A stretch of 64,000 nt of DNA from Burkholderiales bacterium (GTDB lineage: Bacteria > Pseudomonadota > Gammaproteobacteria > Burkholderiales > SG8-41), in the NCBI GenBank assembly GCA_036398235.1, contig DASWHI010000117.1:588-64587 (forward strand), given 5' to 3'. The position numbers were made by a program, and so were the translations under genes. A model generated the notes under the pieces. It did no database searches and had not been told where the DNA came from. It saw nothing but the letters and a program-made list of their open reading frames with translations. Below are positions 29,958 through 35,043 of this stretch, piece after piece; within the stretch, counting starts at the first letter, position 1; every line of letters starts with the position of its first letter.

Positions 29958-30775
29958 ATGCGCCGCACCAGCTTCGCTTGCTGCAGGATGGTGGTGGCGA
30001 GCTCCTCTACCGACTTGCTGGTGGCATCGAGGAAGGGTATGCCTTCCTGGCGCATCAGCGCTTCCGCTTCGCGCACCTCGAACTCGCAGTTGGCGAGCGT
30101 CGCATACTGGCTGCCGGGCCGGCGTTCGTTGCGGATCTGCTGCAGGCGCTCCGGATGGATGGTCAGTCCATAAAGCTTGCCGCGGAGCGGCCGCAGCTGC
30201 GCCGGCAGGCGCATGCTGCTGAAATCCTCGGGAATCAGGGGATAGTTGGCCGCGCGGATGCCGTACTGCATCGACAGGTAGAGGCAGGTCGGCGTCTTGC
30301 CGCAGCGTGATACCCCGATCAGGATGACGTCGGCTTCGGAGAGGTCCCGGTTCGACACCCCGTCGTCGTGGGAGAGCGTGTAGTTCACCGATTCGATGCG
30401 GTGGTGGTAGTTGACGAAATCCGCGACGCTGTGCGAGCGCCCGATGGCATGCGAGGCGCGCAAGCCCAGCTCGCGCTCGAGTGGCGAGATGAAGATCTCG
30501 AAGCAGTCGAGGAACAGCGCGTTGGCTTCGCCGACGACCTGCGCGATCTCGGTGCGGGCGAGGGTGGAGATCACGATCGGGCGCTCGCCGTCGGCCGCCG
30601 CCTGTTCGTTGATCTTGCCTACGACCTCGCGCGCTTTTTCCACCGTGTCGACGAACGGTAGCGTCACCTCGTTGAAGCGCACGTTGTCGAACTGGGTGAG
30701 CAGGCTGTGGCCGAGCATCTCGGCGGTGATGCCGGTGCGGTCGGAGACGAAGAATGCGGTGCGGGGCCGCGCCAT
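29951..30775 (-). CDS. ppsR: phosphoenolpyruvate synthase regulatory protein (bifunctional kinase/pyrophosphorylase, DUF299)
   Basis: [19 protein letters not shown]... with a P-loop [10 protein letters not shown]. The start at 30775 lies inside the 27-bp direct repeat; an upstream in-frame ATG at 30802 would overlap the toxin gene. Confidence 0.9.
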
Positions 30776-30786
30776 CGGTGCTGCCT
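30760..30786. repeat. 27-bp direct repeat, left copy (island boundary; contains the ppsR start codon)
   Basis: tgcggggccgcgccatcggtgctgcct is identical to 35017-35043. Confidence 0.9.
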
Positions 30787-30794
30787 TCGTTGTG

Positions 30795-31142
30795 TCAGCC
30801 AACGATCTTGGCGATTGCCTCGCGGAGCGCCTCCAGTTCGTCCTTTTTCAACTGCCCGAGGCGCCGAATGACGAGCGAGGCTTCGATGGTGGTGATCACG
30901 GGTTTCACGACCGAAGGCTTGATGAGGCCGGCGCTCTTCCAGTCCTTGACTTGGACCTCTCCGATCACGCCGGCTGGCCGTACCTGGCTGGTGACGGCCA
31001 TAATGATCAGGTCAGGTCTCTCGGCGTGGTAGCTGCTGGTGCTGATAATGACGGCGGGGCGGCGCTTGATGGCGCTCTGATCGGTGAAGGGAAAGGGGAC
31101 TAAAACGATGTCGCCGAAGCTATAGCTTGTCGTAGGCGGCAT
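30795..31142 (-). CDS. type II toxin, MazF/PemK family (mRNA interferase-like)
   Basis: [34 protein letters not shown]...[30 protein letters not shown] matches the PemK-fold pattern. Its start overlaps the end of the upstream antitoxin gene by 23 nt. Confidence 0.75.
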
Positions 31143-31379
31143 CCTCTTCGTTGTCCCAGATCTTGGCAAACGCCGGCTCGGCGGCGCGGGCGGCAGCGCG
31201 CACTCCCGCGCGCTGCCCGTCCCGGGTGCGCAGAAAATCGACGAAATCCTCGACCTCGGCCACCCGTTCCGGGGGCAGGTTCTTGAGTTTCTCGATAATC
31301 GTGTGCGGATCTCTGGTGTTCATGCTACAGCCGTCAATGTAAACCAGATGTTGATAATTCTACTCCCTGACTGGAAAAT
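31084..31379. repeat. ~296-bp direct repeat, copy 1 (antitoxin gene, 5' end of toxin gene, TA promoter region)
   Basis: Aligns by eye with 34712-35008 over its whole length, with scattered substitutions. Confidence 0.85.
31120..31323 (-). CDS. type II antitoxin (DUF2281-like, ...LPPERVAEVEDFVDFL...)
   Basis: 67-aa ORF directly upstream of, and overlapping, the MazF-like gene. The acidic C-terminus [12 protein letters not shown] is typical of this antitoxin class. Confidence 0.65.
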   Translation of the reverse strand: MNTRDPHTIIEKLKNLPPERVAEVEDFVDFLRTRDGQRAGVRAAARAAEPAFAKIWDNEEDAAYDKL

Positions 31380-31396
31380 GCGCCTCAAGTTACGGG

Positions 31397-33752: not shown

Positions 33753-33774
33753 CAGCCACAACTCCCGGCCCTAG

Positions 33775-34143
33775 ATGGTCAGAAACTGGGACACGATCCG
33801 CGCGATCCTGCTGAAGCTCGAAGCCGCGAAGACCGCGCACACGACGCTCACGCTCGACCAGGTGGACGGGATCGCGCCGCAGGAAGTGGGCTACCACATG
33901 ATGCTGCTGAAGGAAGCCGGGCTGATCGAGGCGAACATCCTCAAGTCAAGCACCGGCGACGGTGCGATCGCGACGGCGCTCGCGCGGCGGCTGACCTTCG
34001 CCGGTCACGAGTTCCTCGACCAGATTCGCGACCCGACCCTGTGGGGCGGGATCAAATCGAAGGTGAAGGAGAAGGGATTCGATCTCACCTTCGACACGAT
34101 CAAGGCTGCTGCCGCAGCGCTCATCAAAGCCGCGCTCTCGTAG
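33775..34143 (+). CDS. DUF2513-like small protein (putative winged-helix fold)
   Basis: MVRNWDTIRAILLKLEA...GYHMMLLKEAGLIEA...LTFAGHEFLDQIRD resembles the DUF2513 family pattern, recalled from memory and not searched. Confidence 0.5.
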   Translation: MVRNWDTIRAILLKLEAAKTAHTTLTLDQVDGIAPQEVGYHMMLLKEAGLIEANILKSSTGDGAIATALARRLTFAGHEFLDQIRDPTLWGGIKSKVKEKGFDLTFDTIKAAAAALIKAALS

Positions 34144-34442
34144 CGCGCCCCCCCGCGCATACAACTGTAAACACCGAAACCGAATCGTGCCGCGGGGTTG
34201 CTGCCGGTTTGTAGTACCTGTGTAGTCGTTGGGTTTACACGACAATCCCACTGCGGCGCGCACTTAGCGCAGCCTGGTAGGTGCGTATGGTGTGGTGGGG
34301 TCTTCGGGCGTTAAAGAACGCCCGAAGAGCGTTTCCGTTGCCGACGCTTTAGCGTCGGCCGGCAGAGCAGCGCCGGGCCCTCTGTCCACTGGACGAATAC
34401 TGAACAATTGGGGCCAGGTTCAGATTTCTTCTCGCTCCTTCA

Positions 34443-34775
34443 TCACTTGCAATTTTTCAGCTGATTCGAATCCCAACTGCGCCGTAAGCTCCCCCATCGA
34501 GTAGACAGCTCAGAAGTAGACTGTTTCGCCGCAAGGCGCTCGCGGTATAGCGCTGGTGGCAGGCTTCCCAGCGAATCATGGGATCGTTCCTCGTTGCAGG
34601 TCCTGAGCCACTCGCGCGAGATCTGGCGCACATCGCGTAGATCGGCGAACACGTAGGCGTCGAGCACCTCGTCGCGGTAGCTGCGATTGAAACGCTCGCT
34701 GAACGCGGTGTGATCCGTGAATGGAAAGGGGACTAAAACGATGTCGCCGAAGCTATAGCTTGTCGTAGGCGGCAT
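34443..34775 (-). pseudogene. chimeric remnant: first 21 codons of a second MazF-like toxin fused to the C-terminal end of an IS3-family transposase (rve domain tail)
   Basis: [21 protein letters not shown] is followed by HTAFSERFNRSYRDEVLDAYVFADLRDVRQISREWLRTCNEERSHDSLGSLPPALYRE, the conserved end of DDE/rve transposases. No transposase N-terminal part is present. Confidence 0.7.
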
Positions 34776-35008
34776 CTTCTTCGTTGTCCCAGATCTTGGC
34801 AAATGCCGGCTCGGCTGCGCGGGCGGCAGTGCGCACCCTCGCGCGCTCCCCGTCCCGCGTGCACAGGAAATCGACAAAGTCTTCGACCTCAGCCACCCGT
34901 TCCGGGGGCAGGTTCTTGAGCTTCTCAATGAGCGTGTTCGGATCTCGCGTGTTCATGCTAAAGCCGTCAATGTGAGCCAGACATTCTTGTACTCCTTCAC
35001 TGGAAAAT
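34712..35008. repeat. ~296-bp direct repeat, copy 2
   Basis: Aligns with 31084-31379. Confidence 0.85.
34753..34956 (-). CDS. type II antitoxin, second copy (its partner toxin is disrupted)
   Basis: [67 protein letters not shown]. It is the same length as the 31120-31323 product, with several substitutions. Confidence 0.6.
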   Translation of the reverse strand: MNTRDPNTLIEKLKNLPPERVAEVEDFVDFLCTRDGERARVRTAARAAEPAFAKIWDNEEDAAYDKL

Positions 35009-35043
35009 CGACTCGATGCGGGGCCGCGCCATCGGTGCTGCCT
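34997..35043 (-). pseudogene. orphaned ppsR 5' stub (MARPR then out of context) with the right copy of the 27-bp direct repeat (35017-35043)
   Basis: The reverse strand reads ATG GCG CGG CCC CGC ATC GAG TCG ATT TTC CAG TGA. The first 5 codons are identical to the ppsR start. The native ppsR/ppsA divergent spacer follows at 35044-35111. Confidence 0.75.

Follow-up and report, generated by a model that had tools for sequence, protein, structure and literature searches.

What separates ppsR from ppsA in this genome, and how did it come to be there? The two genes, encoding the regulatory kinase/pyrophosphorylase of phosphoenolpyruvate (PEP) synthase and PEP synthase itself, are normally adjacent and divergent. 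In the 64-kb stretch of Burkholderiales DNA analyzed here (contig DASWHI010000117.1, positions 588 to 64,587; the whole stretch is called the window) they are parted by 4,230 bp of accessory sequence (30787–35016), placed at the 5′ end of ppsR and bracketed by two perfect copies of the 27-mer TGCGGGGCCGCGCCATCGGTGCTGCCT. An earlier note had drawn attention to this island and its repeat, and had leaned towards reading the repeats as the attachment (att) sites attL and attR of an integrated element. Our analysis demonstrates that the block is an insertion, and that it is a decayed mosaic. For its history we give an even chance to an illegitimate insertion with duplication of the target, later enlarged through toxin–antitoxin (TA) homology, the insertion of an insertion sequence (IS) and a joint at a microhomology. 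No new category of element is required; the finding is real and largely ordinary.

An insertion into the ppsR–ppsA control region

The locus was compared with 80 ppsR loci of uncultured Burkholderiales and Betaproteobacteria, one genome per species, with PpsR identities of 68–96%. In 68 of them ppsR and ppsA are divergent neighbors, 70–170 bp apart from start to start, and all of these are devoid of island genes; in the six closest relatives the distance is 78–81 bp. The right 27-mer lies 80 nt from the ppsA ATG, and thus the ancestral spacing is preserved on that side. Every empty site examined has one copy of the homologous 27 nt, the arrangement that the earlier note had proposed to look for in relatives, and when one 27-mer and the DNA between the repeats are removed from the window the remainder aligns base for base with the empty sites. 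The 4,230-bp block is an insertion into a normally tight divergent gene pair, for which relatives have an uninterrupted control region of ~80 bp.

The repeat itself is exact. The window contains precisely two copies, and shuffled sequence gave no match even with up to three mismatches (0 expected by chance); allowing one mismatch extends the repeat to 30 nt. The left copy is the true 5′ end of ppsR, whose product matches the Kinase-PPPase family at 5e-80, and the right copy opens an 11-codon stub beside the native ppsA-proximal spacer. In all these respects the earlier description of the repeat was accurate.

The remaining 12 of the 80 species have lost ppsA from upstream of ppsR (L024, L027, L029–L032, L034, L037, L043, L058, L069 and L082; L-numbers denote other loci or contigs compared with the window, and P-numbers proteins). 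At the nine ppsA-less loci examined ppsR adjoins pyrG-kdsA-eno, and L043 keeps a C-terminal remnant of ppsA. At such loci ppsR outlasts its only known target there.

Could the arrangement be an assembly artefact or a chimeric contig? The island contains an internal 282-nt repeat that could mislead assemblers, and two shorter contigs that hold the left junction both stop inside it. Yet the whole island with both 27-mers is present on five independent contigs from different ENA/JGI samples and centers, which span both junctions at 99.9–100% identity. The worry, which the earlier note had itself raised, is dispelled, and the chance of an artefact is negligible. The exact PpsR protein was found on 16 metagenome contigs, all of which carry either the island or its left junction; a search among them for an empty-site or single-cassette allele of the same population found none.

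The G+C content falls to 0.56–0.58 at 33.0–33.8 kb and 34.2–34.8 kb, compared with 0.65–0.70 in the flanks, in agreement with the lower value previously noticed in the right part of the island. It is host-like (0.675–0.70) over the 5′ two-thirds of the Rhs-like open reading frame (ORF), at 31.4–32.8 kb.

A mosaic built on two toxin–antitoxin cassettes

The features of the locus are collected in Table 1. The content of the block is non-core, as the earlier note recognized: PemK/MazF, DUF2281 twice, an ORF with Big_7 and RHS core domains, DUF2513 and an rve_3 fragment. What that reading overlooked is that the mosaic is built around one TA cassette present in two diverged copies, that its Rhs gene is 5′-truncated, and that ppsR has been parted from its native promoter.

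Table 1. Coordinates of features at the interrupted ppsR–ppsA locus (window numbering; functions are predicted)
Feature	Position	Strand	Evidence and remarks
ppsR (PEP synthase regulatory kinase/pyrophosphorylase), 274 aa, intact	29951..30775	-	PF03618, 5e-80; 68–96% identity in 80 species
Left 27-bp repeat copy	30760..30786	.	ppsR leader, 11 nt, plus ppsR nt 1–16 (ATG at 30775)
mazF-like toxin, TA1, 115 aa, intact	30795..31142	-	PF02452, 9e-16, 58.5 bits (cut-off 23.1)
DUF2281-type antitoxin, TA1, 67 aa	31120..31323	-	PF10047; overlaps toxin gene by 23 nt
TA1 promoter region	31324..31389	-	TAGAAT 31362–31357; cassette homology stops at ~31389 (19 contexts, blastn limits)
Rhs-family polymorphic toxin gene, 5′-truncated	31397..33466	+	PF17957 (Big_7 Ig domain); TIGR03696; truncated gene as a whole 31393..33466
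87-aa ORF	33489..33752	+	Starts 23 nt after toxin gene; no family match
DUF2513/HTH_20 protein, 122 aa	33775..34143	+	PF10711, 1.5e-26
80-nt non-coding segment	34403..34482	.	88% identical to L088 3460–3381; just outside IS3 end
IS3-family remnant (~230 nt; last ~70 transposase codons + right end)	34483..34709	-	NF033516 positions 315–369 of 369; tblastn to IS3 transposases
mazF′ stub, TA2, first 22 codons	34710..34775	-	In-frame fusion to IS3 remnant at CGATCA-type microhomology
DUF2281 antitoxin, TA2, 67 aa, intact	34753..34956	-	PF10047; differs from antitoxin 1 at 21 nt and 6 aa
TA2 promoter remnant	34957..35016	-	4-nt deletion in -10 region; cut at ...CTCGA, flush with right repeat
Right 27-bp repeat copy	35017..35043	.	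Stub ORF MARPRIESIFQ* at 35032–34997, minus strand
Native ppsR promoter (putative), TTGTGC-N16-TATTTT	35063..35090	-	Conserved blocks; now 4.3 kb from ppsR
ppsA (PEP synthase), intact	35112..37505	+	PF01326, PF00391, PF02896; ATG at 35112

The second cassette is seen as a direct repeat of 282 nt with 89% identity (31067–31348 and 34700–34981). We designate the left copy TA1 and the right copy TA2. With its toxin fold and adjoining small antitoxin gene in one operon, TA1 has the layout of a type II TA system of the MazF/PemK kind, from which a toxin is predicted. Like MazEF and PemIK it combines the PemK/MazF fold with a small, overlapping upstream antitoxin gene and a promoter of its own; unlike them the antitoxin is of DUF2281 type rather than MazE, the second copy consists of an orphan antitoxin and a toxin stub, and the TA activity is a prediction. 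The toxin of TA1 has more than 2,900 homologs, the closest 90–91% identical. Its gene pair recurs in L088, L090, L091, L184 and L187, and the pairing of a PemK/MazF toxin with a DUF2281 antitoxin is kept in at least 19 contexts. A search for the cassette in plasmid and phage records gave nothing useful.

Where does the cassette begin and end? Homology of TA1 to three unrelated contexts (L088, L090 and L091) covers about 30789–31389 only, while that of TA2 extends to about 35008–35016, i.e. to the right 27-mer. Thus the insert is bounded on one side by the toxin end, and on the other by the promoter end, of one ~600-bp MazF/DUF2281 cassette. From the mazF stop codon of TA1 it is 8 nt to the left repeat and 19 nt to the ppsR ATG. 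When the cassette ends are aligned across 19 contexts, the usual form has a T-run with CCTAGAGGCGCA upstream, and downstream a hairpin with a further T-run behind it. Both are absent here, and by this alignment the ends of the cassette are trimmed and not fixed. TA1 and TA2 are 89.5% identical, and the cassette of L088 is 86.4% identical to TA1 and 87.9% to TA2. As the three are roughly equidistant, TA1 and TA2 are independent acquisitions rather than the product of a recent local copying. Mosaicism along TA1 was also considered and rejected, the windowed identity to L088, L090 and TA2 giving no clear switch.

TA2 is joined to the remnant of an IS3-family element. The homology of three related IS copies stops exactly at ...GGGGGAGCTTACG, so that 34483 is the end of the IS; the adjacent 80-nt segment, considered as an IS3 terminal repeat, is ruled out for the same reason. 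At the opposite side of the remnant, the sequence of related IS copies is CCCGATCAAAATGC and that of mazF CACCGATCAGAGCGCC, while the island has the hybrid CGGATCACACCGCG, a joint with a microhomology of 5–7 nt. In four related copies the transposase terminates naturally with a stop codon after ...ELST; in the island this codon has become CGA (Arg; 34500–34502, minus strand), and the mazF′::IS3′ fusion ORF therefore continues for 18 further codons. Public records of metagenome-assembled genomes label this fusion ORF (P0241) as a 110-aa 'integrase core domain' protein.

Might a transposase have made the 27-bp duplication? This would need either an enzyme of long stagger, of the IS1634/IS1549 kind, or movement of the whole block by the resident IS3. 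Some IS families do give target duplications tens to hundreds of base pairs long, an IS3 remnant is present inside the island, and IS3 fragments accompany the cassette in L090. However, a repeat scan found no terminal inverted repeat linking the borders of the insert, and the cassette ends differ between contexts. IS3-family elements give duplications of 3–5 bp, and the remnant is internal, with its outer end (34483) away from the island border. Of the transposase gene the island retains, in its interior, no more than the last ~70 codons, and a functional transposase is not encoded. An origin of this kind is very improbable. The borders were also inspected for attC-like palindromes, by eye and with the repeat scan but with no dedicated attC model, and none was seen.

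Origin of the 27-bp duplication

The interpretation of the 27-mers as attL and attR supposes that one or two integrase-less islets were integrated by a tyrosine recombinase acting in trans, possibly in tandem, and that a later deletion between the IS and mazF of TA2 removed a middle att copy. Such islets would be akin to the cis-mobilizable elements (CIMEs), decayed genomic islets that have kept attL and attR and lost the integrase, and for which tandem accretion has been described (PMC5704250). The resemblance is real. The island is a small accessory block without a recombinase; its flanking direct repeats are perfect and leave the target gene restored, its interior looks tandem and its cargo includes a TA module, and single-copy empty sites exist in 68 species. 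Its two TA-headed units are in direct order, as fits the tandem accretion of CIMEs (PMC5704250). An islet with the same kind of layout is L088, 3.2 kb long, in which the TA cassette is accompanied by a divergent gene for an Rhs-core toxin, now in two ORFs, by a membrane protein of 187 aa and by the 80-nt segment shared with the window. It lies between two perfect 47-bp copies of the tRNA-Lys(ttt) 3′ end (3174–3220 and 6448–6494), and no integrase was found in its 3.2 kb. A third locus, L090, holds three copies of its target region, and in the window, L088 and L090 alike the toxin end stands beside the intact target.

Against this stands the identity of the 27-mer. It is the host's own variant: the homologous 27 nt differ at 1–7 positions in the seven closest species and at 8–11 in the next three examined. 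A 27/27 match by a foreign attP is thus unlikely, while a duplication of host sequence matches automatically; moreover the TA1 and TA2 lineages are ~10% apart, and two foreign attP sites would both need such a match. The repeats are flush with the trimmed cassette ends (toxin stop plus 8 nt on the left, truncated promoter on the right), leaving no room for recombinase arm sites. The earlier note had seen no integrase in the island, and we find none there or within 10 kb on either side, which was the extent of our recombinase check. No element, with or without an integrase, occupies the site in the 80 relatives, and a search of 2.9 million viral contigs did not find the 27-mer. Repeat lengths in the cassette family vary (7, 27, 47, 78 and >170 nt), and the boundaries in L090 are not fixed. 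Unlike CIMEs, the island has as its target the 5′ end of a gene, and not a tRNA or a 3′ end. The att reading is weakened by these observations, and we regard it as rather unlikely, though still a live competitor. Pavlovic et al. (2004) reportedly described CIMEs as islets that keep attL and attR without an integrase.

Insertion at the 5′ end of a gene has a precedent in SXT/R391, which integrates at the 5′ end of prfC using its own integrase and a 17-bp att core. The island is likewise inserted at the start of a housekeeping gene that is kept functional with new upstream sequence and transcription. In contrast to SXT/R391, it encodes no integrase, and any att core in it would be putative.

The structure of L090 raises a further possibility. 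The cassette lies there in a 694-nt insert with a 7-bp duplication (TGACGAC), co-oriented just upstream of apaH, and hence target duplications in this cassette family vary in length. Between 2500 and 6600 the comM-apaH junction is present three times, as copies of 116–300 nt with 77–100% identity and differing boundaries, separated by a HicAB-like pair, a fragment of a Golvesin-like repeat protein, an IS3 orfA fragment and the MazF/DUF2281 cassette. Duplications of this kind, 116–300 nt long and 77–96% identical, look like imported flank alleles. By analogy, a circle carrying a copy of the ppsR start, released by imprecise excision in a conspecific donor, might have been integrated in Campbell fashion through short homology, or a longer duplication might have been trimmed inward to 27 bp. 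At 27 bp the repeat is about as long as the shortest homology used by RecA-dependent recombination in E. coli, and its 100% identity is what a donor of the same population would give. Yet such a route presupposes an earlier, unexplained insertion beside the donor ppsR, and trimming would need two deletions, each stopping exactly at a cassette end; nor is any intermediate allele present among the 16 contigs with identical PpsR. We consider it improbable.

How general is a 27-bp duplication around this cassette? Perfect 27-nt repeats are present at L137 and L141, but are parts of imperfect repeats of ~110–170 nt, and 27 bp was rejected as a general signature. At more distant loci the flanking repeats are either contig-end overlaps or long and imperfect, and at L187 and L091 none was found. 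In L184 (5400–9500) and L185 the cassette lies inside rhs orphan arrays, with four or five copies of a ~230-nt Rhs-core repeat and small ORFs between them. Thus it often travels with rhs orphan regions.

The history to which we give even chances, illegitimate insertion followed by enlargement, would comprise three steps. In the first, a TA fragment running from promoter to stop codon would have entered the ppsR leader by illegitimate, non-site-specific recombination, for example by a staggered break with fill-in or a template switch during replication, with duplication of 27 bp of host sequence. The duplication keeps the ribosome-binding site and start codon of ppsR as well as the control region on the ppsA side, and so the insertion would have been tolerated. 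In the second, a diverged TA cassette would have arrived linked to a piece of rhs orphan-toxin DNA, anchored by TA homology and bringing with it the 5′-truncated Rhs gene, the 87-aa ORF, the DUF2513 gene and the 80-nt segment. In the third, an IS3 element would have inserted beside the 80-nt segment, and the CGATCA joint between transposase and mazF of TA2 would have removed most of the IS and two-thirds of that mazF. This joint may be a deletion, or it may mark the side on which an integration facilitated by homology was closed illegitimately.

Homology-facilitated illegitimate recombination and microhomology deletions have been described in Acinetobacter, S. pneumoniae and P. stutzeri. In the island one side would likewise be anchored by TA homology (~89%), and the other is joined at a microhomology of 5–7 nt, but that process leaves the outer 27-bp duplication unexplained. 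Having neither a recombinase nor defined ends, the island is most likely immobile.

Several points weigh against the proposed history. We know of no documented bacterial process that gives a clean 27-bp duplication around a 0.6-kb insert, and the first step is thus a mechanism reached by exclusion, not one demonstrated. The tRNA-Lys repeat of L088 is the classic signature of site-specific integration, and the three target-region copies in L090 resemble tandem accretion. At all three loci it is the toxin end that faces the intact target gene, a common polarity suggestive of an element whose structure is defined. With one sequence to go by, the order given for the second and third steps is provisional, and the transcription of ppsR together with TA1, discussed below, is no more than probable.

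The window, L088 and L090 could conceivably belong to a single family of small TA-headed islets that lack an integrase and carry polymorphic toxins. These would insert at the very 5′ or 3′ end of a conserved gene, with their toxin end in every case turned towards the intact gene, make variable long repeats (7–78 bp or more) by an undescribed mechanism, and capture the transcription of the downstream host gene, with ppsR or apaH becoming the third gene of the TA operon. We think this a long shot. The locus is a clean and datable case of the accretion of junk in a housekeeping locus, with known empty sites and with every breakpoint placed to a few bases. As portable homology, the TA cassette seems to have recruited a second block. 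A 27-bp duplication with no enzyme in sight is a small puzzle, which would become weightier if duplications of variable length proved common around this cassette family.

Displacement of the putative ppsR promoter and the remaining genes

What is the consequence for ppsR? The TTGTGC-N16-TATTTT blocks in the spacer beside ppsA are kept in all aligned empty sites, and also upstream of ppsR in most of the nine ppsA-less relatives examined. Since they are conserved even where ppsA is missing, we take them to be the ppsR promoter, although a simple promoter scan did not flag them. In the window this promoter now reads into the stub ORF and the orphan antitoxin of TA2. No terminator-like site is predicted between mazF and ppsR; TA1 lacks its usual terminator hairpin and lies 19 nt upstream of ppsR, and the autoregulated TA1 promoter therefore probably drives ppsR. 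Judged from this layout, ppsR has probably become the third gene of the TA1 operon, cut off from its native promoter. If so, TA autoregulation and the control of gluconeogenesis would be coupled in this uncultured and abundant lineage of Burkholderiales, the one physiologically interesting feature of the locus.

The largest gene of the island encodes a polymorphic toxin of the Rhs family. The RHS-associated core TIGR03696 scores 82 bits (cut-off 32.5) over residues 502–582, with a DPFGL motif, of the DPxGL cleavage type, at the end of the core, and is followed by a Cys-rich C-terminal domain of ~100 aa. A Pfam scan did not find the RHS_repeat/YD shell. The full-length relatives P0122 (811 aa) and P0123 (794 aa) begin ~100 residues earlier, with an N-terminus that resembles a signal peptide, and thus the island gene is without its first ~100 codons including the signal peptide. 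The ORF contains an internal direct repeat of ~440 nt (31393–31833 and 32059–32499, 78% identity). These repeats encode a domain assigned to no family (GVNLFRAMG...DNDLNS.RDWAV), of which the full-length relatives hold about three copies.

A small ORF directly after the toxin gene is the typical arrangement of an Rhs toxin and its immunity protein, and from its position the 87-aa ORF is a candidate immunity protein. Neither this ORF nor the toxin tip matches any NCBIfam or Pfam family. The island gene resembles the rhs orphan modules in being 5′-truncated while keeping the RHS core and DPFGL, in its variable tip and in the small ORF that follows, and its close relatives lie in rhs arrays (L174–L176, L184 and L185). 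Unlike those modules it has no main rhs gene within 64 kb and no YD-repeat shell, and it lies in a housekeeping locus. The DUF2513 gene is separated from the 80-nt segment by a spacer of ~260 nt. An Rfam scan of the island gave as its sole match a sub-threshold CRISPR repeat (E = 0.52).

Some further observations concern other members of the TA family and the wider window. Two TA-family contigs, L136 (8,721 nt) and L150 (3,716 nt), have identical ends of 55 and 67 nt, and may be small circles or collapsed tandems. On the 40-kb contig L132 a perfect direct repeat of 5.3 kb (223–5530 and 9032–14339) surrounds a distant member of the family. Elsewhere in the window, an element of ~300 bp resembling a transposable element of the miniature inverted-repeat kind (MITE) lies between rseP and bamA (21710–22008); its terminal inverted repeats (GGAGCCCCTAACACGATGAAAC...) agree over ~25 bp. 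The same-population contig L003 is without it, and there the bamA start directly follows the rseP stop. A related MITE-like element is present in L001 at another junction, at the point where L001 and the window diverge.

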